From contig JADJZR010000008.1 of NCBI GenBank assembly GCA_016715645.1, forward strand, positions 48,241-112,240: a stretch of DNA of 64,000 nt. Direction: 5' to 3'. Within the stretch, counting starts at the first letter, position 1. Every line of letters starts with the position of its first letter. Below the pieces are notes generated by a model that saw only the letters and a program-made list of their open reading frames with translations, was not told the origin of the DNA and did not search any database. The stretch comes from Elusimicrobiota bacterium (lineage in GTDB: Bacteria > Elusimicrobiota > Elusimicrobia > FEN-1173). Below are positions 12,187 to 63,710 of the stretch, piece after piece. A program made the translations under genes and the position numbers.

Positions 12187-12261
12187 ATGAAATTCAACGT
12201 CGCCGTCCTTGTCGAGAGCAGGGAGCCTAATGTCATCAAAGATTTTGAGAAACCACGATGA
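12187..12261 (+). pseudogene. 24-codon remnant of an MDR alcohol-dehydrogenase N-terminus (MKFNVAVLVESREPNVIKDFEKPR*)
   Basis: Close match to the N-terminus of the intact dehydrogenase at 13843 (MKFKAAVLVESRNPLVIEELE). It is terminated by TGA, which overlaps the ATG of the next gene. Confidence 0.5.
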
Positions 12262-13712
12262 AGGTCAAACGCGCTCTAAAACGAAATGTTTCCTCCCCTC
12301 CGTCGCTTTTAGAAAATCTGCAGGCTTGGGTGCGTTTAGGGGAGTCTGAAATTTTGGAGTTTAAACGCACGACAAATGAACGGAGAGAGGCTGTTCGCTC
12401 GCTTTGCGCAATGATCAACCATCGAGGGGGACGTGTGTTGTTCGGAGTTTCCTCTGCCGGAGAGATCCTCGGGCAGCAGGTCAGTGATCGCACCATTGAA
12501 GAATTGGCGCAAGAAATCAAGGAGATCGACCCCCCTGTTTTTCCATCCATCGAACGCATTGTCGTTTCCCGGGAGCGGGAAGCAATCGCCGTAACCGTTT
12601 TACCCGGGCCGTCAGGTCCCTACACCTACAAAGGGCGCGCCTATCGGCGCGTGGGGAACGCGAGTCTCGCGATGTCGAAGGATGAATGCAATCGTATTTT
12701 ACTCGAACGATTGCATGGCCAGAGCCGCTGGGAAAATCAGTTGTTGGAAGAATGGTCCGTCAAAGATTTGGACATTGGCGAAATCACGCGGACCATTGAC
12801 GAGTCCGTGCGCCGCGGTCGATCTGAGGATCCAGGCACGCGAGACCCCGAGATTATTCTTCGCGGGCTTGGCCTCATGAAAGGGAAGCGTCTTTTTCGAG
12901 CCGCCGCCGTTTTATTTGGCCGTCGCGACCTCCTCGCAGCGGAGTATCCCCAATGCCTCCTTCGGGTCGCTCGGTTTCGCGGGTCAGACAAGACAGTTTT
13001 CGTTGATAACCGTCAGTTTCAAGGCAACGTGTTTGACTTATTGTCCCATGCGGAGAGATTCCTGCGCGATAATTTGCCCGTCGCGGGGCGCGTGCTCCCA
13101 GGCCTTTTTGAACGAGTGGATGATCCTCTGTACCCTTCTCTTGCCTTGCGTGAATCTCTGGCCAACGCTTTTTGCCATCGGGATTACAGCATGGGGGGCG
13201 GCTCGGTTTCGCTCGCTGTTTATGACGACCGATTGGAGATCACGTCTTCAGGCCCTCTGCATTTTGGGCTCACAGAGGAAATGCTGTTCCTTCCACACGA
13301 ATCCCTTCCCTGGAATCCCCTGATCGCAAGGACCTTCTATCGGCGGGGCATCATTGAATCCTGGGGACGCGGCACTTTGAAAATGGCCGAGTTAATGCAC
13401 GCCGCCGGTCTTCCCCACCCGGAAATTGTTGAGGCCAGTGGATGCGTTATCGTTCGATTCCGACCGAAAGAGAGCCTCCCTCTTCATGCATCGGGGGACT
13501 TAAATGCGCAACAAAAAAATATAATCGCCCTCATCGTGGCCACCCCCATCGGGCTTTCGTTGCGTGACATTCGGAAAGGGATCCCATCCTCTCCGCCTGT
13601 GTGGAAACTGAAAAGGGAACTGGAGACGTTGAAAAATCTAGGCAAACTCGCGACGCGCGGGCGTGGCCTCGGCGCTCGCTGGCTCCTCCGAAAGGAGCCG
13701 AACGCCCCATGA
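12258..13712 (+). CDS. Schlafen/AlbA_2 + HATPase_c_4 + wHTH protein (COG2865), paralog of the gene at 1..1248
   Basis: ESEILEFKR (AlbA_2); ALRESLANAFCHRDYSMGGGSVSLAVYDDRLEITSSGPL (HATPase_c_4); C-terminal wHTH-like region. Confidence 0.7.
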   Translation: MKVKRALKRNVSSPPSLLENLQAWVRLGESEILEFKRTTNERREAVRSLCAMINHRGGRVLFGVSSAGEILGQQVSDRTIEELAQEIKEIDPPVFPSIERIVVSREREAIAVTVLPGPSGPYTYKGRAYRRVGNASLAMSKDECNRILLERLHGQSRWENQLLEEWSVKDLDIGEITRTIDESVRRGRSEDPGTRDPEIILRGLGLMKGKRLFRAAAVLFGRRDLLAAEYPQCLLRVARFRGSDKTVFVDNRQFQGNVFDLLSHAERFLRDNLPVAGRVLPGLFERVDDPLYPSLALRESLANAFCHRDYSMGGGSVSLAVYDDRLEITSSGPLHFGLTEEMLFLPHESLPWNPLIARTFYRRGIIESWGRGTLKMAELMHAAGLPHPEIVEASGCVIVRFRPKESLPLHASGDLNAQQKNIIALIVATPIGLSLRDIRKGIPSSPPVWKLKRELETLKNLGKLATRGRGLGARWLLRKEPNAP

Positions 13713-16680: not shown

Positions 16681-17606
16681 AATATATAGTCTTTGGAGCT
16701 TCTGGTTTTCTTGGGCGACATTTTGTTCAACAAGCCCGTCAACACGGGCACGAAGTCCTTGGTACATATCACCTCCAAAAACGAGAAGGCCTGCTTCCCT
16801 TCAACTTAAAAAATAACCGGCTGAGCGAAATCGTGCCGGCGGATTTTTTTTCTTCTGGCCCTGTCTGTGCCGTTCTTTGTTCGTTCATTAGTCAGATCGA
16901 CGATTGTTTTCGCTGGAAAGACGAAGCGCGATTGTCCAATGTGGACGGGATGATCCGCTTGATCAATGATCTTTGCGAAAAAGACGCCTTTCCGGTCTTC
17001 CTCTCCACTTGTGCGGTGTTTGATGGAACTGCCGGTTACTATTCTGAGGAATCCCCGACAGGGCCCATCAACGAATACGGGCGGCAAAAACTCGCGGTCG
17101 AAGAATTTCTACGCGCACACGGGATGGCTTCCTCTATTCTTCGCTGCGACAAATTGATTGGCGACGATGCGGGAGAGTCCCATATGCTGTCCGAATGGTA
17201 TCGGTGGGCCAATGAGGGGCGACCTCTGGTCTGTATACAAGGGCAGATGATTTCGCCAACGCTGGTTACGGACGTGGCCCGGGCCATTGTAGTGGTTTGT
17301 GAAAAACGGCTAACGGGCGTTTTTCACGTCGCAAATCCACAACACTGCCTCAGAGAAGAGCTGGCCTTGGAATTTTTGAAAGCGCTCAATTTGCGGGGAA
17401 CAGTGGTGGGGAAAACTCAACAAGAATTGGGATTCGCGGATTTACGCCCGTTAAAGGCCCATCTGAACCCCTTAAAATTTATCAAGGCCACGGGTTTCCA
17501 ATTTACCCCCGTTCAGCGGATTTTTGAGGTATTCGCTCAATCAGCCAAGTGCCCGCCTAAACAAGTGAGTGGGCACGGCACCGTGAACGTTCTGCCGGGA
17601 AAATGA
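16677..17606 (+). CDS. dTDP-4-dehydrorhamnose reductase (RmlD)-like SDR
   Basis: ATG at 16677 (MKYIVFGASGFLGRHF). RmlD-like length and motifs. Confidence 0.55.
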   Translation: MKYIVFGASGFLGRHFVQQARQHGHEVLGTYHLQKREGLLPFNLKNNRLSEIVPADFFSSGPVCAVLCSFISQIDDCFRWKDEARLSNVDGMIRLINDLCEKDAFPVFLSTCAVFDGTAGYYSEESPTGPINEYGRQKLAVEEFLRAHGMASSILRCDKLIGDDAGESHMLSEWYRWANEGRPLVCIQGQMISPTLVTDVARAIVVVCEKRLTGVFHVANPQHCLREELALEFLKALNLRGTVVGKTQQELGFADLRPLKAHLNPLKFIKATGFQFTPVQRIFEVFAQSAKCPPKQVSGHGTVNVLPGK

Positions 17607-19408
17607 TTTCGATTAACAAACAGGAGACGAATGCTGAAATGAGTGTTTTTCGGTTTTTTTGTGAGATGTTTGAAAAATTTCCGCGGTTGCTTATGTTCAA
17701 TATCTCTCTTCTTTTTATCTCTGGGATCTTGGAAAGTTTAATCCTCATCACGTTGGTTCCTATCGTGGATTGTCTTTCAATGAGAGATCTGAACCTGGCC
17801 AGTCCGTGGACCCGCCATTTTTTTGCAGGGATGAATTTTGTCGGGTTGACCCCTACTTTAAAAAACCTCTTTGTCGTTCTTTTGATGTTCCAAATTGGTG
17901 CAAGCGGGTTTTTTATTATTGCCAACCATTCTGTTCTAAGGACGAAATACCTTATATCGGACAAATTGCTCGTGGAGGCCTTCCGGGATTTTTTTAGCGC
18001 GAGGTTTTGTTTTTTTAGTAACAATTCCCACGGCGCTTTACAAACGACCTTTGCCCGGTTGGTCAGCCAAGTGGGGGACGCTTTTGGAGGGCTGGGTTTG
18101 ATGGTTGTTGTGGTTTCCCGGATAATTTTTTATCTGGCTGTCCCGATGCTGATTTCATGGCAAGTGACTCTCTTGAGTGTCGTTTTATCCACAATTCTTG
18201 TTTGGCCGTTTATGAAAATGGGAAAAAGGTCATATCGTTGGGGTCAGGCGAACGTTACGACGGCCAATGACATGATGTCCCTCATCCAGGAGAGTATTGG
18301 TGGAGCCAGGGTCGTTATGGGGTTCGGAAATGAGCGGAAAAGCGAGGAGTCTCTTCGAGAAACCTATCGGAATCATTACAAAGTGTCTATTAAGTTTCAA
18401 ACGCTCAACAACATCATTCCGGTGGTTTTTAAGCCCCTGGGATTGGGGGTTTTGATCGTTGTGTTGTTCGTTGCTCGTCGCCTGGATATCCCTTTCTCAG
18501 AAATCACCATCATTGTTCTTTCATTTCTCCAGATGATTCCTTTGTTTGGCCAATTGGCAGCGAGTAAAAATGCGATTCAAAACGCCCTCCCATCCTACGA
18601 ACAAATTGAGTCATTGCGTCGGGAAGCTCGGCTCTTGGCGAACTCTTCGGGGACCCGAACGTTTTCGTCTCTAAAAGATGGAATTGAGTTTCATCATGTG
18701 GGTTTTTCCTATCGCGACCGTCCCCCCGTTCTGACGGATGTTTCGCTCAAGATCTCTCGGGGCCAGTTTGTGGCTATTGCAGGGGAGTCCGGCGTGGGAA
18801 AGTCAACTCTGGTTGATTTGATCATGGCCCTACACGATCCGTCCTCCGGCCAAATTACACTTGATGGAATCCCTTTGCGGGAGTTTGACGTAAAATCCTA
18901 TCGTAAACGCATCGGATATGTCCCTCAGGATTCCATGCTTTTCAACCGTAGTGTGAGGGAAAATCTGCTTTGGGCCAATGAAACCGCCTCAGAATCCGAC
19001 ATTCGGTTTGCCTGCCAAAGGGCCCACGCCGCAGAGTTCATTGAACAATTTCCCAAAGGATACGATACAATGATCGGCGATCGGGGCGTTCGTCTTTCGG
19101 GCGGCCAGGCTCAACGCGTGAGTCTGGCGAGGGCGATTTTGCGCGATCCACTTATCCTTATATTGGATGAGGCTACCAGCGCCTTGGACACGCAATCCGA
19201 ACGTTTAATTCAACAGGCGGTGGAAACCATTGCAAAAGGGACCACAGTCATCGCCATTGCCCATCGCCTATCCACGATCATGAATGCCGATCATATTGTT
19301 TTTTTGAGGGAAGGACGTGTGGCGGAGGAAGGGACCTACGCGAATTTGCTCAAACAAGGCGGTTATTTCGCCAAAATGGTTCAACTGCAAACGCTCAATG
19401 CTCAATAG
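17603..19408 (+). CDS. ABC exporter, fused permease + ATPase (MsbA/lipid-linked glycan flippase-like)
   Basis: Six predicted TM helices followed by Walker A GESGVGKST, signature LSGGQAQR and Walker B ILILDE. Confidence 0.85.
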   Translation: MISINKQETNAEMSVFRFFCEMFEKFPRLLMFNISLLFISGILESLILITLVPIVDCLSMRDLNLASPWTRHFFAGMNFVGLTPTLKNLFVVLLMFQIGASGFFIIANHSVLRTKYLISDKLLVEAFRDFFSARFCFFSNNSHGALQTTFARLVSQVGDAFGGLGLMVVVVSRIIFYLAVPMLISWQVTLLSVVLSTILVWPFMKMGKRSYRWGQANVTTANDMMSLIQESIGGARVVMGFGNERKSEESLRETYRNHYKVSIKFQTLNNIIPVVFKPLGLGVLIVVLFVARRLDIPFSEITIIVLSFLQMIPLFGQLAASKNAIQNALPSYEQIESLRREARLLANSSGTRTFSSLKDGIEFHHVGFSYRDRPPVLTDVSLKISRGQFVAIAGESGVGKSTLVDLIMALHDPSSGQITLDGIPLREFDVKSYRKRIGYVPQDSMLFNRSVRENLLWANETASESDIRFACQRAHAAEFIEQFPKGYDTMIGDRGVRLSGGQAQRVSLARAILRDPLILILDEATSALDTQSERLIQQAVETIAKGTTVIAIAHRLSTIMNADHIVFLREGRVAEEGTYANLLKQGGYFAKMVQLQTLNAQ

Positions 19409-19414
19409 GATTAT

Positions 19415-19423
19415 ACAAAGGCC
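19415..19423 (+). repeat. 9-bp target-site duplication (acaaaggcc), left copy
   Basis: An identical 9-mer directly abuts both inverted repeats of the IS element. Confidence 0.7.
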
Positions 19424-20739
19424 CACTACTGTCCGGTTAAGAAGTGATGAGCAGTAACTGTTTTCCGGCGAGGCGACTCTCGGTTTCCGAACGATTTTCC
19501 GAAAGTGACTGATTGATATCGCTTTTCTCGAAAATGGAAATGCTGAGGATCTGCAGGATTTCGTTCAGACTTCGAGAAATGTTCCGCTCTTTTTTGAGGA
19601 GAGCGACCAGGACGTAAACTGTGATGGCGATCCAGATTTGAGTCTTGACCGCATTCTCTGATGTCCCGTAGAACGTCTTGATGCGCAGATTTTGTTTGAT
19701 CCATTTGAAGAAAAGCTCCACCCGCCAGCGGGCCTTGTAAAGTTGCGCGATGGTCAAGGCAGGGAGAGAAAAGTTGTTGGTCAAAAAGACCAAATGCTTC
19801 TTTGTTTCGGGGTCGATGTAGTGAATGCGTCGGAGGACGTCTGGATAATTTTGAGATGGGTAGAACCCTCTCAAGCGGATGGTTTGATCGGAACAGAGTC
19901 CGGTGGTTTTGTCTACTGCCTGCGAAGACACGTGATTGAATTTCATATTTCGTTTGGCTCGGGTCACAAAGAAGGCCGCGCTCTGGGTGATGACATAAAG
20001 CCGGGAAAAATCGATGTAGCCCCGGTCCATCATGTAGAAAGCACCGGCCTCTAAAATAAGATGGTCCAGAGCGTTGACATCGTGGACTTTTCCGTCGGTA
20101 ATGTGAATAAAACAGGGAATGCTTCCCCGCAGATCGATGAGCGTATGGAGCTTGACGGCAGCCTTGTGTTTGCGAAAGCGAGCCCACGGGAACAGCGAGA
20201 GACAGAGATCGGTGGTTGTCGAATCGAATGCGTAGGCGGTCTGATTCAAATCGACACCGAAAGAATCTTTGGCGTATAGAGTTCTGGCTCGCTGAATCAG
20301 GATGTGAGCGAAGTCGGCATAGATGCGCCAATCGCGCGTTTCGTTGGCATCGGCCAAAGTGCTTTTGAACATTTGGCCACGAAAGCCCATGTGATAAAGT
20401 CGGGACTGCATCGGGCGCAAACACGTTTCGATATCTCGAAGGCTTTCCCGGTAAGTCAGCTGGGCAAAAGCCATCGATAAAAACTGGTCCCAGCAGGAGA
20501 ACCGGCGGAGACGACGATCTCCCCGATAGCGATGAACGCACTTTCTGAAATCGTGCAAAGGAACGTGATCCATGATTTGGGCAAACGCAGTCCGTCCGGT
20601 GTTCATAGGCCATCCCCTCCCCTGTGGAATGGCCAAAGAGTAACATGAATTTCAAATCGATTACAGGCATTATTGTTTTCAATCCTTTGTCTTTAATGCA
20701 TTTTCAGCAATTTCTGTTTCGCTTAACCGGACAGCAGTG
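19424..20739 (-). mobile_element. IS4-family (DDE) insertion sequence, about 1.3 kb, with 18-bp imperfect terminal inverted repeats (17/18 match)
   Basis: Left IR cactactgtccggttaag (19424-19441) versus the reverse complement of the right IR cttaaccggacagcagtg (20722-20739). A single transposase ORF lies inside. Confidence 0.75.
19437..20636 (-). CDS. IS4-family DDE transposase
   Basis: N-terminus MAIPQGRGW...FSCWDQFLSMAFAQLTYRESLRDIE is a typical IS4-family leader; 399 aa. The overlapping 418-aa ORF in another frame is taken to be an artefact. Confidence 0.75.
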   Translation of the reverse strand: MAIPQGRGWPMNTGRTAFAQIMDHVPLHDFRKCVHRYRGDRRLRRFSCWDQFLSMAFAQLTYRESLRDIETCLRPMQSRLYHMGFRGQMFKSTLADANETRDWRIYADFAHILIQRARTLYAKDSFGVDLNQTAYAFDSTTTDLCLSLFPWARFRKHKAAVKLHTLIDLRGSIPCFIHITDGKVHDVNALDHLILEAGAFYMMDRGYIDFSRLYVITQSAAFFVTRAKRNMKFNHVSSQAVDKTTGLCSDQTIRLRGFYPSQNYPDVLRRIHYIDPETKKHLVFLTNNFSLPALTIAQLYKARWRVELFFKWIKQNLRIKTFYGTSENAVKTQIWIAITVYVLVALLKKERNISRSLNEILQILSISIFEKSDINQSLSENRSETESRLAGKQLLLITS

Positions 20740-20748
20740 ACAAAGGCC
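20740..20748 (+). repeat. 9-bp target-site duplication (acaaaggcc), right copy
   Basis: See the left copy; it lies 3 nt upstream of the ATG of the downstream aminotransferase. Confidence 0.7.
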
Positions 20749-20751
20749 ATT

Positions 20752-21864
20752 ATGGACATTAAAAAAATAGACTGGTGGAGGACTTCATTCGGTCAAGAAG
20801 AAATCAGTATGTTGACGAAATCAATGTCCGAAGAACATATTAGCCAAGGTCCCGTCACGGCTGAATTTGAAGCGCAATTCGCCAAGGCGATGAATGTCCC
20901 CTACGCTGTTGCGACCACCAGCGGGAGTGTCGCTCTCCTGATGTCTCTTATGGCCATGGGCGTAAAGAGAGGGGATGAGGTGATCGTGTCCAATCGCACG
21001 TTCATTGCGACGGCTCATGCTCCTCTGATGTTGGGGGCAAAAGTCGTCCTTGTTGATGTTCACCGGGACGTCCCTGTTATGGACGTTTCTTTAATTAAGA
21101 AAAAAATCACGGCTCGGACCAAGGCCATTATGCCGGTACATCTGTGTGGTCGTGCGGTTGATCTGGCGGGAATTCATCGCCTTGCCAAGGCCTATGGGCT
21201 TTGTGTCATCGAGGATGCCTGTCAAGCGATGTTTTCAAAAAACGAGAGGGGGTATTTGGGCACACAATCCGATGTGGGTTGTTTTTCGTTGGGTGTCACT
21301 AAACTTATATCATCGGGACAGGGCGGGGTTGTTGTAACCAGCAATCGCCGCACATACGAAGAATTGAAATTAATTCGCAACCATGGAGTTCCTGGAACAT
21401 TCGAAGCCACCTATCCGCGGTTAGGGTTTAATTTCAAATTTACCGATATTCAGGCCGCCATCGGGTTGGCTCAACTCCGTCGAGTAAAGGATCGATTATT
21501 GAAGCTTCATTCCCTTTACCGGAAATACGAAGGTAACTTGAAGGAGCTCGATTTTCCGTTTCTGAGATTAATTCCCGTGAATGTGAACGCTGGCGAAGTC
21601 CCCCTTTATATTGAGGCGCTGTGTCAAAATAGAGATTCCGTTCGGAATTATCTAAACAGTCGAGGAATTGAGGTGCGGCCCTTTCTTCCCAATCTCAATC
21701 AATCCCCACATATCAAAAATGGAGGATCCTTCCCCCATTCGACCGAATTTTCAAAGCACGGGTTCTTTCTCCCCTCAGGCCCGGATCAATCAGACTCTAA
21801 CGTTGATCGGGTTCTAAACGCTATGCAATCTTATGTTAGAAGAAAAAAAATAGGTTTATTCTGA
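20752..21864 (+). CDS. DegT/DnrJ/EryC1/StrS-family PLP-dependent sugar aminotransferase
   Basis: ATG at 20752 (MDIKKIDWW). The ORF-track start at 20737 lies inside the IS inverted repeat. Typical DegT motifs are present, and the catalytic Lys is in ...SLGVTKLISSGQGG. Confidence 0.8.
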   Translation: MDIKKIDWWRTSFGQEEISMLTKSMSEEHISQGPVTAEFEAQFAKAMNVPYAVATTSGSVALLMSLMAMGVKRGDEVIVSNRTFIATAHAPLMLGAKVVLVDVHRDVPVMDVSLIKKKITARTKAIMPVHLCGRAVDLAGIHRLAKAYGLCVIEDACQAMFSKNERGYLGTQSDVGCFSLGVTKLISSGQGGVVVTSNRRTYEELKLIRNHGVPGTFEATYPRLGFNFKFTDIQAAIGLAQLRRVKDRLLKLHSLYRKYEGNLKELDFPFLRLIPVNVNAGEVPLYIEALCQNRDSVRNYLNSRGIEVRPFLPNLNQSPHIKNGGSFPHSTEFSKHGFFLPSGPDQSDSNVDRVLNAMQSYVRRKKIGLF

Positions 21865-55405: not shown

Positions 55406-56395
55406 ATGTTCGTCAGACTCAATCGCAACTCTCAGGGCAAAGCCTACCTCCAATTCGTCCGCAGTTATCGAGAGGGGGGCAAGGTCCGTCAACAGATTCT
55501 CTTGACGTTGGGTCGGTTGGATGTTCTTCAATCGACGGGGCAAATTGACAACCTCGTGGCGGCGTTGGGACGATACGCCACGAGGGAAAAGCTGGTGGAC
55601 CTGAGCAAAGACATCTCCGTTGATCAGGTCTATTTTCTGGGTGCGGCGCACGTGGTGAGCCGGATGATGGAACGGCTGAAACTGACGGCGATGTTTACCC
55701 GATTGAGGGCGAAGCATCCGAAGATGAAGTTGCCCTGGGTAGGGATTATCACCGGGATGATTGTGAGTCGATTTATCGCGCCGTGCTCGAAACGGCGGCT
55801 GAACATGGAACAGTGGGGGCGAATCTATCCCGGGATTTTGGAAATGGAGGCGCCGCCCCTGAAAAGTTTTTACCGAGCGATGGACGTGTTGTGGAAACAT
55901 CGGGAGGACGTTGAGGGAGCCCTGTTTGACCGCGGGGGCCAGCGGGATCTTTTCAACCGCGGGTTGGACGTCGTTTTTTACGATTTAACGACACTGCGTT
56001 TTGAAAGCACCAACGCGACGGACGGGGAACTTCGACGGTTCGGGTATTCAAAAGAACACTGGAGCGATTGCACACAAGTGATCCTGGGCTTGTTGGTGGA
56101 CCGGGACGGGGTGCCGGTGGGCTACGAACTTTTCCCGGGCAACACGTATGAACCTCACAGCTTGCCGAAGATTCTGGAGAAGATGAAAACGAAGTATCAC
56201 ATCGAACGCGTGATCGTGGTGGCAGATCGGGGGTTGGTGACGCAGGAGAACGTCGGGGAACTGAGCAAGAACGGGATGGATTTCATTCTGGGGATGAAAT
56301 TGTGGTCGATGTCGGAGGCCGATCAGGACCAAGAAAATCCGATAAAACCGTTCCTTAGAGGGAAAAGGAGACCCGCTGCTTCACCAAATTGGTGA
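55406..56395 (+). CDS. IS1634-family transposase, N-terminal ~60% only (truncated/disrupted)
   Basis: MFVRLNRNSQGKAYLQFVRSYREGGKVRQQILLTLGRL is the hallmark IS1634 N-terminus. The ORF ends prematurely where the IS1380-like element begins. Confidence 0.65.
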   Translation: MFVRLNRNSQGKAYLQFVRSYREGGKVRQQILLTLGRLDVLQSTGQIDNLVAALGRYATREKLVDLSKDISVDQVYFLGAAHVVSRMMERLKLTAMFTRLRAKHPKMKLPWVGIITGMIVSRFIAPCSKRRLNMEQWGRIYPGILEMEAPPLKSFYRAMDVLWKHREDVEGALFDRGGQRDLFNRGLDVVFYDLTTLRFESTNATDGELRRFGYSKEHWSDCTQVILGLLVDRDGVPVGYELFPGNTYEPHSLPKILEKMKTKYHIERVIVVADRGLVTQENVGELSKNGMDFILGMKLWSMSEADQDQENPIKPFLRGKRRPAASPNW

Positions 56396-56619
56396 AAAAT
56401 GAAGGGCTCTTTATAGGGGGCCCTGAAAGCGGGAATTCGTGTGGTTTTTTGGGGACCCCGGTAAAAGGTAAAGAGGTGGGGGCTCTCCCATGTGTGGGAG
56501 GGTGGGGTCTGAAGGGCCGCAAGAGGAGGAGGGGTGGGGGCACCTTGGCCAGCGGGAGAGGTCAAAATCAAATAAAATGCCTCGTCGAAAGACGGACATC
56601 TTCACGACGAGGCGAAACC

Positions 56620-57924
56620 ATGATAACACGTGTGCTTGAAAAATACAAAGTATCGATGACGAATCTAGCGGTGACGTCGTATGCGGGGTTGCCGCTGTTG
56701 TTGGGAATGGCGAAGAGCTTGGGTTTGGAAGAGAGGCTGAACGGTTTACCCGTGAAGGAAAGGGCGCGAGGCTATCGACCGGCGGAAACGATCTTCAGCT
56801 TAATGGGGTTGTTGCAATCGGGTGGAGTGGCGTTGGACGACATGGATCTGTTAAATGGCGACGAGGGATTGAGGGCGCTTCTAGGGAAATTCCCGGCGGC
56901 GAATACGGTGGGCGAATTGCTGAGACGGTTCGGGAATTCGGCGATACACCGGTTGGGTCAAATCCAATTGGAAACGGCGGTGAAGGTGATTCGATCGGCG
57001 GGGTTGAAATCGGTGGTTGTGGACGTGGACTCGTTTTTTGTTGAGTCACAGAAGTCGGATGCGGTGATGAACTATGAAGGGAAAACGGGATACAATCCCG
57101 TGGCGGTGACGTGCGCAGAGCTGAAGATGCCGATGGCGGGTTTGTTTCGTCCCGGGAACGCATCGGCGATGGCGAACGTGGCGGGCCTGTTGGAGCGAGT
57201 GTTGGAGGCGGTGAAAGGGATCGGCGTGCGAGTGCGAAGCGACAGTGCGGGTTTTCAGGCGGATGTGGTGCGGGTGTTGAGGGCGAAGGGGGCGCGGTTC
57301 ACGATTACGGCGCGCAAAGACGCGGCGGTTCTCGAGACGATCCGGGGGATAAAGCCAGAGTGTTGGCGTAAGTATGAGGGTGGGGCGTGGGAGAACCGGG
57401 AAACGGAGATTGCGCAGACGGTTCATGCGTTCGGGGCGGAGGATCTTGCGGCGCATCGAATGATTGTGATCCGATGGAAAAAAACGAATCCGGAATTGTT
57501 TGACAAAGAGCCCTATGAATATCATGCGGTGATCACGAACATGGATGACTGGTCGGGGGAAATGGTTCTTCAATTTCATCGAACACGCCAGGATGGATCG
57601 GAAAACGTGAACAAGGAATTGAAGGGTGGGATTGGTTTATCCAAGTTACCCTGTCGGGCGATGAAAGCGAACGCGGCGTATTTTCAGGTGGCTCTTCTGG
57701 CGTATACGGTGTTTGCGGCGACAAAACATTTGGCGTTGCCCAAGAGCTGGGGATCCTTGACGATCGAGACGGTGAGATCACGGCTGATTCGACTGGCGGG
57801 GGTCGTGGCGAAGAGGGCCCGGTATGTCTGGTTGAAGATCGGGAAGGGGTATCCGTATATGAAGTGTTTTGAGGACGCACGGTGGCGGATTATAGGGCTA
57901 TCGGTTGAAATAGCGACGGGATAG
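56620..57924 (+). CDS. IS1380-family DDE transposase
   Basis: ATG at 56620 (MITRVLEKYKV). YNPVAVTCAELKMPMAGLFRPGNASAMANVAGLLERVLEAVKGIGVRVRSDSAGFQADVV is an IS1380-like catalytic region. Confidence 0.65.
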   Translation: MITRVLEKYKVSMTNLAVTSYAGLPLLLGMAKSLGLEERLNGLPVKERARGYRPAETIFSLMGLLQSGGVALDDMDLLNGDEGLRALLGKFPAANTVGELLRRFGNSAIHRLGQIQLETAVKVIRSAGLKSVVVDVDSFFVESQKSDAVMNYEGKTGYNPVAVTCAELKMPMAGLFRPGNASAMANVAGLLERVLEAVKGIGVRVRSDSAGFQADVVRVLRAKGARFTITARKDAAVLETIRGIKPECWRKYEGGAWENRETEIAQTVHAFGAEDLAAHRMIVIRWKKTNPELFDKEPYEYHAVITNMDDWSGEMVLQFHRTRQDGSENVNKELKGGIGLSKLPCRAMKANAAYFQVALLAYTVFAATKHLALPKSWGSLTIETVRSRLIRLAGVVAKRARYVWLKIGKGYPYMKCFEDARWRIIGLSVEIATG

Positions 57925-61483: not shown

Positions 61484-63028
61484 GTGATTAAGGCCGAAGA
61501 AATTCCGAAACCGACGGATGCGGCCGGGCTGTTGCGGCGGGAACCCCGGGAAGGGTTTCGACGGGGAGCTCACCTTCGGTTGGCGGACCTGGCCGACGGG
61601 GGGGTGACGCGGTTTTTGTCCGCGGAGGCCGCGCCGGTCTATTTGACGATTCTTTACGCCCTGCTCTTGTTTCGCCGTCGGCACGAACTGGATCCCCTGC
61701 ACACCGTCCTTTACGACGACATTCGGCCCGTGGTGGAAAGCCAGACCGCCGCGCCCTATTCCCTGGACGCGTTCGCGTCCGACGTGAACCAGCTGGTGGA
61801 GTGGGGCTGTTTAAAACGGGAAGTGGAAGCCGCCCGCATTCGCGGCTACCGCGACCGAAGCCGGGACCATTTTCGATACACTCTCACCTCCGACACAGTT
61901 TCTTTTCTGGAATGGCTGGAAGGCCGGTTGGATCACCGTGTTCACGGCACGCTCCAGGACGGCCGCGATCTCCTGCTGGATCTAACCCAACGGTTGAACG
62001 AAGCGGCCAAAATTGTCCGTCGGTTGCGGGAGGGCGGTGACGAGGAAGACGCGCGCCGGTTGATTTATTTGCTGGAATCGGCCGACAACGAAATGGACGC
62101 GATCGGGCGGGACCTCACCGTGTTGCGAGCCGAGATGCACGCCTACGCCCGGGGGTTGGCCACCGCGGACGATTTGCGCCGGGTGGTGGACGGGCTGGAA
62201 CGATACGTGGCCCGTTACGTGCGCCGGTTGCGGGAGTTGGGCGGGCGGGCTTACATGGCGGCGCGGCGGCTGACGCGTAAAACGGCGCTGGACGTTCTTC
62301 GCCGGGCCCAGGAAAAAATCGCCGCTGACAGTCTGGGGGGCCGCTCCACCCGACGGGACACGGCGGAACTCCTTCAAAACGCCATTGTGCCGTTTTTGCG
62401 TCCCAACGGACGGCTGTTGGACACCTGTTCGCGGGTGGAAGAAATGGCGGCCCAGGTGGTTCAGCGCATCCACCGACGGTTGCGGGACCTGGAACTGCGC
62501 AATTTCCGGCTGGAAGAAATTGGCGCGCGGCTTAAAGAGATGGCCGCGATGGAGGAAACCGATCGTCGGCCGGGCCTTTTCCTGCGACGGCTGACGGCGC
62601 TTGTTCATGTCCCGTTGGATCCCAACTTACAGTCCGAAGGGAAATCCCGGTTGCCCCTGGTGCGGGCTTTCCGGGAATGGACCGACCGGGGCGCGCCCGA
62701 ACCCCTGCGCCGGCCGACGGCCCGGCCCGAGGACGCGTTGACACAAGACGATGACCGTCGGGCGCGTCTGCGGGCGTATGTGCACAACACTCTGTTGCGG
62801 GGCGCGTGGTCGGGCCGGTTGTCCAACGCCCGGCTGGAGAGCGGGGAAAATCCGTTCGAGTGGTTGGCCGTGGCCAAGGCGGGATTTTTAAGCCAGGGCC
62901 GCGACCTGGACCGGGCCGGTGTCCATATCCAAGACGAGGCGGGTTCGGCCCATCTGTCGGCCGACGGCCGCCATGTGGCCACCGTCGATCACACCCTGGT
63001 GGTGATGGAAAAATCCCATGGAACCTGA
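61484..63028 (+). CDS. jetA: Wadjet/condensin-like subunit A (JetA/MksF-like; DUF3375-type) - tentative
   Basis: 514-aa Arg/Leu-rich helical protein (GTG start). It is the first gene of an operon whose third gene has an SMC/JetC-type Walker-A N-terminus. Assignment is by size, order and composition. Confidence 0.4.
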   Translation: MIKAEEIPKPTDAAGLLRREPREGFRRGAHLRLADLADGGVTRFLSAEAAPVYLTILYALLLFRRRHELDPLHTVLYDDIRPVVESQTAAPYSLDAFASDVNQLVEWGCLKREVEAARIRGYRDRSRDHFRYTLTSDTVSFLEWLEGRLDHRVHGTLQDGRDLLLDLTQRLNEAAKIVRRLREGGDEEDARRLIYLLESADNEMDAIGRDLTVLRAEMHAYARGLATADDLRRVVDGLERYVARYVRRLRELGGRAYMAARRLTRKTALDVLRRAQEKIAADSLGGRSTRRDTAELLQNAIVPFLRPNGRLLDTCSRVEEMAAQVVQRIHRRLRDLELRNFRLEEIGARLKEMAAMEETDRRPGLFLRRLTALVHVPLDPNLQSEGKSRLPLVRAFREWTDRGAPEPLRRPTARPEDALTQDDDRRARLRAYVHNTLLRGAWSGRLSNARLESGENPFEWLAVAKAGFLSQGRDLDRAGVHIQDEAGSAHLSADGRHVATVDHTLVVMEKSHGT

Positions 63029-63710
63029 ATCCGCCGAACTCCCCGAATCCGCCTCGCTTCAGCGGCTCAACCAGGATCTTGTGCGCCGCGTGATGAACGT
63101 GTTGACCGAAGCCCCGTTTTTTTATCTGGAAGACGATCGGGCCCTGTTTCAATACGCCCGGCGCCATCGCGCCGCGTTTCGGGATTTCGCGAAATATTAT
63201 TTCGGCTGGGACCTGGTGATCGACGCGCGGTGCGCCCGCCTGGTCAAACGGGGGGACCGGGAAAATCCCGAACTCAAAAGCGCTCACGTGGACACGTTTC
63301 ATCTTCCGCGCCGAAACCTGTCCTTGGTGTTTTTAATTCTGCTGGAACTGTTTGAAATCGAACAACGTCGAGTCAATTGGCAATACGAGCGGGACGCGTA
63401 TTTGCGTTTTTTCCACAACGACTTTTTTGAATACGCCAAAACGCGGTTTCGGGCCCTGCTGGGGGACCGCGCGCCGGACGACAGCGCTCTGCGTCGGGAC
63501 ATCCAGGAGACATGGACAATTTTGATCAAATACCGGTTCATCCGGCCCATTCCCCCCACGCCGGCGGAACTGTTGGTGATGGACCGCAAACAAGGCGAGC
63601 TGTATGAGTTTTTGCCCGGTGTGACCTGTTACGACTCCAACGTGTTGCGGGACGCCGATTGGGTAGCGCGGCTAAAAGTTCAACCGGAAGAGGAGCCCCC
63701 TTCGTCATGA
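63018..63710 (+). CDS. jetB: Wadjet/condensin-like subunit B (JetB/MksE-like; DUF4194-type) - tentative
   Basis: 230-aa acidic protein overlapping both neighbours. Matches JetB in size and position. Confidence 0.4.
   Translation: MEPESAELPESASLQRLNQDLVRRVMNVLTEAPFFYLEDDRALFQYARRHRAAFRDFAKYYFGWDLVIDARCARLVKRGDRENPELKSAHVDTFHLPRRNLSLVFLILLELFEIEQRRVNWQYERDAYLRFFHNDFFEYAKTRFRALLGDRAPDDSALRRDIQETWTILIKYRFIRPIPPTPAELLVMDRKQGELYEFLPGVTCYDSNVLRDADWVARLKVQPEEEPPSS

Follow-up and report, generated by a model that had tools for sequence, protein, structure and literature searches.

A complete IS4-family insertion sequence with an exact 9-bp target-site duplication between an ABC exporter gene and a DegT aminotransferase gene of an Elusimicrobiota glycan cluster

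Does the transposase-bearing element that separates an ABC exporter gene from a DegT-family aminotransferase gene in the 64-kb window (the whole stretch of Elusimicrobiota DNA analyzed here) control the glycan genes that follow it, or is it an ordinary insertion? Insertion sequences (ISs) are well known to be active in surface-polysaccharide loci, and the initial annotation described an IS4-family element recently inserted at the ribosome-binding site (RBS) between the two genes, where it might polarize or reprogramme the expression of the downstream genes and act as an on/off or variation mechanism. What we found is a textbook IS insertion, and nothing pointed to a special role in regulation.

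The element was bounded by two 18-nt terminal inverted repeats, complementary at 17 of 18 positions (94%) with 1280 nt between the arms according to a repeat finder, and the 9-mer ACAAAGGCC abutted both ends exactly (Table 1). The single mismatch lay at position 5 of the right repeat, which has G in place of A as judged against the other end and the closest relatives, and the transposase stop codon (19437-19439) fell inside the left repeat. With up to 3 mismatches allowed, the repeat motif occurred in the 64-kb window just at the two IS ends, compared with 0.04 occurrences expected by chance, and the chance probability of an exact 9/9 match of ACAAAGGCC at two fixed positions was ~4e-6. Both the imperfect 18-bp inverted repeats and the 9-bp duplication first reported for this locus are therefore real, and the interval given for them, 19415-20748, corresponds correctly to the element plus both duplications. 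Along the plus strand, the order was the ABC exporter stop codon TAG (19406-19408), GATTAT, ACAAAGGCC, the IS, ACAAAGGCC, ATT, and the DegT ATG (20752), placing the TAG 6 nt ahead of the left duplication. The distance of 3 nt from the aminotransferase start reported earlier holds for the duplicated 9-mer, but not for the IS DNA, which ends 12 nt before the ATG. In the window as a whole, ACAAAGGCC occurred five times versus 0.8 expected; apart from the two duplication copies (19415 and 20740), the occurrences at 2544, 5664 and 53641 (minus strand) lay inside ORFs, and the excess is probably due to chance.

Table 1 Features of the IS and its two neighbour genes (positions in the window)
Feature	Position	Strand	Sequence	Description
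ABC exporter gene	17603-19408	plus		fused permease/ATPase, 601 aa, intact; Pfam ABC_membrane and ABC_tran
Left copy of 9-bp target-site duplication	19415-19423		ACAAAGGCC	
Insertion sequence	19424-20739	minus (transposase)		1316 bp, complete, IS4 family
Left terminal inverted repeat	19424-19441		CACTACTGTCCGGTTAAG	transposase 3' end
Transposase gene	19437-20606	minus		389 aa, ATG start, intact IS4-family DDE transposase
Transposase leader	20607-20721	minus	GGGGAGGGG (Shine-Dalgarno)	weak promoter-like matches only
Right terminal inverted repeat	20722-20739		CTTAACCGGACAGCAGTG (plus strand), CACTGCTGTCCGGTTAAG (minus strand)	transposase 5' end
Right copy of 9-bp target-site duplication	20740-20748		ACAAAGGCC	carries Shine-Dalgarno-like AAAGG
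DegT aminotransferase gene	20752-21864	plus		DegT/DnrJ/EryC1-family sugar aminotransferase, 370 aa, intact; Pfam match over 4-360 of 360 profile positions

Assemblers break contigs at the edges of repeats, and three unrelated contigs with related elements marked the boundary independently: one from a different sample with 94% nucleotide identity (L029) ended exactly at the left IS terminus (...CTTAACCGGACAGTAGTG), and two carrying a 72% relative (L032 and L033) stopped exactly at their own IS terminus. In more than 60 relatives, similarity stopped precisely at CACT.../...AGTG.

The transposase gene was set at 389 codons on the basis of its homologues, which number in the thousands and have 388-389 aa, and of the strong Shine-Dalgarno sequence GGGGAGGGG (20614-20622, minus strand) located 7-9 nt ahead of the ATG at 20606. 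Given the length of these homologues, a 399-aa TTG-start ORF and an overlapping 418-aa ORF in another frame were rejected as mechanical ORFs. The protein matched the Pfam families DUF4372 (1e-32) and DDE_Tnp_1 (6e-31) and scored 271.9 bits (cutoff 115) with the NCBIfam equivalog model NF033592 (transpos_IS4_1). The next-best NCBIfam model was that of IS1634 (52.9 bits, cutoff 100), and the scores for IS5, IS701 and IS982 were likewise far under their cutoffs, ruling out membership in any of these four families. In an alignment with 8-9 relatives, the residues D128, D194 and E297 were invariant, as was the intact YREK signature Y290-x2-R293-x3-E297-x6-K304. The signature Y-(2)-R-(3)-E-(6)-K in region C1 defines the IS4 family (De Palmenaer et al. 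2008, PMC2266710), whose members contain one ORF, the YREK signature and, in most subgroups, 5'-CA ends, and whose duplications, listed in Table 1 of that study as ~10 bp, span ~8-13 bp, in contrast to the 4-6 bp of the split-off IS701, ISH3 and IS1634 families (PMC2266710). The window IS contained a single transposase ORF with no frameshift, as expected of the IS4 family; both of its termini started with 5'-CA (CACTACTG... and CACTGCTG...), a feature also kept in relatives, and its 9-bp duplication fell within the IS4-family range and outside that of the split-off families. Taken together, the NCBIfam score, the two Pfam domains, the YREK signature, the CA ends and the duplication uphold the original family assignment, and the element is a bona fide, structurally intact IS4-family IS of a clade with N-terminal DUF4372 transposases. 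The transposase is identical to GenBank MBK8870692.1, already annotated "IS4 family transposase" in the source metagenome-assembled genome (MAG), and an exact-sequence look-up found this sequence on record from only one contig.

Within the family, the IS4Sa subgroup is listed in Table 1 of the defining study with CA------T ends, a length of 1150-1750 bp and direct repeats of 8-10 bp (PMC2266710), and the window IS fitted this row on all three (CACTACTGT ends, 1316 bp and a 9-bp repeat) in addition to sharing the YREK signature. IS4Sa itself differs, with ~24% identity in tblastn between the window transposase and that of IS4Sa of Synechocystis over 68% of the protein, compared with 29% for ISRm16. 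Because the similarity to IS4Sa itself was so low, we keep this putative subgroup assignment provisional. Among named elements, the closest are ISPosp4 and ISGme2, which resemble the window IS in their length of ~1.32-1.33 kb, their single 389-aa DUF4372 and DDE_Tnp_1 transposase, their CA[CG]TA[CG]TGTCCGG... termini and their exact 9-bp duplications. Their amino acid identities to the window transposase were only 60% and 56%, respectively, by tblastn (59% and 54% in the alignment), which makes the window IS a distinct IS. What is new is an IS of a well-known kind, less than 95% identical to any of the matches listed and ~60% identical to the nearest named IS.

A search for transposase homologues returned at least 8000 matches. 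The closest sequences among the matches listed were metagenome copies with 94-95% amino acid and 94% nucleotide identity, and proteins at the 94-95% level were encoded by more than 50 metagenome contigs, drawn from many samples. The termini common to related elements read CA[CG]T[AG][CG]TGTCC. On finished plasmids, all five intact relatives had CA[CG]TA[CG]TGTCC termini and exact 9-bp duplications, namely ISPosp4 on plasmid 2 of Polaromonas sp. JS666 (AGATTCGAT), ISGme2 on a Geobacter metallireducens plasmid (AGTGGAATA), and relatives on Thiodictyon (ACGACGAGC), Magnetococcus (AATTAAACT) and Rhodoferax (AGTTGGGAT) plasmids; a 9-bp duplication was also present at one metagenome locus, L031 (ACTGATTGT). 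Scanning metagenomes with the transposase yielded 80 loci with 62-72% identity, 54 of which retained both ends and enough flank for comparison. Of the 54, 11 bore an exact 9-bp duplication and 43 bore none; all other lengths between 4 and 13 bp were absent from these loci. Thus, the duplication was 9 bp throughout the 17 related copies that had one (five on plasmids, L031 and 11 from the metagenome scan), with no other length. Of 18 pooled duplications, 15 had A as their first base (position 1) and 11 had T as their last (position 9), with T directly before the duplication in 10 of 11 cases, amounting to a weak target preference for T|A at one border. We take the absence of a duplication at 43 loci as the probable result of short-read assembly, in which a multicopy repeat acquires chimeric flanks, or of recombination between IS copies. 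The flanks did not match in these 43 of 54 short-read metagenome or MAG copies, whereas the duplications were perfect in 5/5 finished-plasmid copies, hinting that the flanks of this abundant IS clade are often mis-joined in short-read metagenome and MAG assemblies.

The element lies in the spacer between two intact genes. For the ABC exporter, the best NCBIfam matches were HepA/MsbA-like, all under their cutoffs; the DegT aminotransferase is identical to GenBank MBK8870693.1, and the transposase, DegT, an acetyltransferase and the next gene correspond to MBK8870692.1 to MBK8870695.1 (locus tags IPN19_). Removing the IS and one 9-mer gave TAG-GATTATACAAAGGCCATT-ATG, an 18-nt spacer that is reconstructed and not observed, and an uninterrupted junction reading ...GATTATACAAAGGCCATTATGGAC..., which agrees with the view that removal restores an RBS-ATG junction. 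The AAAGG of the right 9-mer lay 5 nt before the DegT ATG. Since AAAGG or AAGGAG-like motifs also stood ahead of other cluster genes, and a 79%-identical DegT relative had GGAAGGCC-nnn-TTG at the aligned position, the right-hand 9-mer represents the native RBS. The insertion is thus at the RBS within the ABC-DegT spacer, as initially described, except that the RBS was duplicated rather than destroyed; neither neighbour gene is broken, and DegT keeps its own RBS copy. The original target read ATTAT-ACAAAGGCC-ATTAT, with a 5-bp direct repeat on each side of the 9-bp staggered cut. An in-frame GTG from the IS end (20737) would add five residues (MTKAI) to DegT; GenBank uses the ATG start, giving 370 aa.

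An empty site was found neither in genome contigs, nor in metagenome contigs, nor among 5.8 billion proteins, because the searched collections contained no close relative of the locus. A scan with the DegT protein of genome contigs, which do not include the source species, gave a best match of 61% identity, and the exact 24-nt pattern joining the right duplication to the DegT start had no match in metagenome contigs. Among the 5.8 billion proteins, the sole DegT relative above 65% identity besides the source (P0122, 79%) had a methyltransferase-like gene, not an ABC exporter, upstream of it on its contig (L037), and no ABC homologue was located directly upstream of DegT among the fetched loci. 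Even with no empty site, the statistics of the duplication and the 9-bp rule that applies across the family are, in our view, sufficient to accept it.

Downstream of the IS, ~34 kb of co-directional glycan genes extended on the plus strand to ~54.8 kb, beginning with DegT and continuing with a hexapeptide acetyltransferase, a 620-aa membrane protein with no Pfam match, WbqC, a GT2 glycosyltransferase and several methyltransferases. Further downstream were SDR, GNAT and AMP-ligase genes, two more DegT genes, a PseB-like dehydratase, a CMP-sugar synthetase-like gene, NeuB, a radical-SAM enzyme and TylF, making this a nonulosonic-acid-type glycan cluster. The ~35 kb of downstream co-directional genes envisaged at the outset are therefore present, at ~34 kb, but intergenic gaps of 100-380 bp after 29312, 33550, 48710, 49689 and 50690 make a single transcription unit of that length unlikely. 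Given the gap after 29312, the first unit that the insertion could directly affect spans ~20.75-29.3 kb.

Taking these observations together, it is very probable that an intact IS4-family IS transposed into the 18-nt ABC-DegT spacer, with polarity or a neutral outcome, and not promoter-driven activation, as its most likely consequence. The window IS resembles IS10/Tn10 and IS50/Tn5 in its DDE/YREK transposase, short terminal inverted repeats, 9-bp duplication and single ORF running to the element end, while IS10 and IS50 differ in having 5'-CT ends and belonging to other IS4 subgroups (PMC2266710). By analogy with these two systems, the DDE transposase would have bound both 18-bp ends and excised the element by cut-and-paste, for which hairpin chemistry is assumed. 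The excised element would then have been joined to a target cut with a 9-bp stagger, the repair of which would leave two ACAAAGGCC copies. As a result, 1325 bp of untranslated DNA, antisense to the transposase gene, would separate the upstream promoter from DegT and from the genes that share its transcript, probably to ~29.3 kb; the transposase gene is convergent with the glycan operon. As far as the sequence can tell, the most likely effect on the downstream genes would be transcriptional polarity or none, with transcription most likely lowered, or unchanged if read-through is efficient; an IS-borne promoter would not switch them on.

A contrasting reading, in which an outward or hybrid promoter lets the IS activate or reprogramme the glycan genes that follow it and serve as an on/off or variation switch of the surface glycan, appears very unlikely. 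IS10 carries its outward promoter pOUT at the transposase-proximal end, which in the window is the end adjoining DegT, and the RBS kept by the duplication would make any transcript leaving the IS translatable. However, a crude consensus scan, from which the host consensus may differ, predicted no sigma-70-like promoter directed at DegT within the final 360 bp of the element, and neither a pOUT-like outward promoter nor an antisense system was detected in the element, in contrast to IS10 and IS50. A relaxed scan retrieved TTAACC-19 nt-CATTAT at 20723-20753 as the sole match facing DegT; in addition to its over-long spacer, its -10 element overlaps the ATG, so that transcription would start inside the coding region, past both RBS and ATG, and could not express DegT. 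At the other end, the same scan retrieved the mirror-image match TTAACC-19 nt-TATAAT at 19440-19410, also with an over-long spacer and directed antisense into the ABC gene, and a hybrid promoter was rejected for both junctions on these grounds. The paired sites reflect the ATTAT repeats, which together with the TTAACC of each inverted repeat create mirror-image promoter-like sites with 19-nt spacers at the two junctions. Cut-and-paste IS4-family elements such as Tn10 and Tn5 excise imprecisely, precise loss being rare and host-mediated, which makes the IS a poor reversible switch, and on/off switching is accordingly not expected. A precedent for activation is IS1301, an 844-bp element in the siaA-ctrA intergenic region of the capsule locus of Neisseria meningitidis, which raised capsule transcripts two- to threefold (PMC2413038). 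Like the window IS, it separates export from biosynthesis genes of a surface-polysaccharide locus and occupies a short intergenic region, but it belongs to another IS family, lies between divergent promoters and had its transcriptional gain shown by experiment, whereas the window IS lies between co-directional genes with no promoter predicted. A regulatory switch of the IS1301 type would involve an IS-borne or hybrid promoter for the adjacent gene, or an insertion that comes and goes reversibly in the population, and no usable promoter-like site faced DegT. With no outward promoter predicted, the RBS kept and excision imprecise, the proposed on/off role is unsupported.

Could the junctions instead reflect an assembly artefact, in which a multicopy IS was threaded between two non-adjacent contig ends? 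The source is a MAG, and the non-matching flanks of 43 of 54 related metagenome copies suggest that chimeras are common, but an artefact is hardly credible at a locus with an exact 9-bp duplication at both ends (~4e-6 by chance), with flanks that join as a coherent 18-nt stop-RBS-start spacer between co-directional genes of one low-GC glycan island, and with a transposase whose exact sequence is on record from one contig only. Set against the 43 relatives with no duplication, the perfect one here is good evidence that the window copy was correctly assembled. It is possible, if on balance unlikely, that the insertion is old, fixed and neutral, the downstream genes having their own promoter or being served by read-through, with no phenotype. 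Neutrality would be in keeping with the downstream ORFs, all of them intact and with domain matches over the full length, with the kept RBS, and with the terminator-like hairpins on the plus strand of the IS, which were all weak and had stems of 5-6 pairs; against it, the original 18-nt spacer left no room for a DegT promoter outside the ABC coding sequence. As for age, the perfect duplication, intact transposase ORF and near-perfect inverted repeats, which are more typical of a young insertion, together with the intact downstream genes, make a recent insertion a reasonable inference, though they give no date. We consider it rather improbable that the insertion is polymorphic in the population and uncouples late sugar-modification genes from the exporter operon, creating a surface-glycan variant selected, for example, by phages or grazers; if so, the uncoupled genes would be DegT, the acetyltransferase, WbqC, the glycosyltransferase and the methyltransferases (20.7-29.3 kb), and the kept RBS would permit their residual expression.

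Beyond the existing annotation, the significance of an intact IS4-family IS in this spacer is slight, and nothing about it would surprise a specialist. Its exact ends, 9-bp duplication and weak target preference are now defined for a very abundant, mostly unnamed IS4 clade in environmental metagenomes, for which the window copy provides a clean, correctly assembled reference.

For the host, the locus represents a glycan gene cluster undergoing remodelling by mobile elements, with three IS families within 64 kb. Where the glycan island ends on its 3' side, a truncated IS1634-family ORF (55406-56395) matched positions 1-250 of a 483-position model and was abutted by an IS1380-family transposase gene (56389-57924; 255 bits, cutoff 180). 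This region, 55406-57924, had an unusually high GC skew of 0.30-0.37 and probably represents one IS inserted into another. The GC content of the glycan cluster (~15000-55000) was 0.44-0.50, compared with 0.53-0.60 upstream and 0.54-0.66 downstream, which suggests that the low-GC glycan island was acquired horizontally; the IS4-family element had a GC content of ~0.49. Elsewhere in the window, two Schlafen-AlbA_2/HATPase_c_4 proteins, putative ATP-dependent DNA-binding proteins, were encoded at 12258-13712 and 73-1248 among sugar-biosynthesis genes, and adjoining DUF2397 and DUF2398 genes (61484-63710) occupied the high-GC end of the window.
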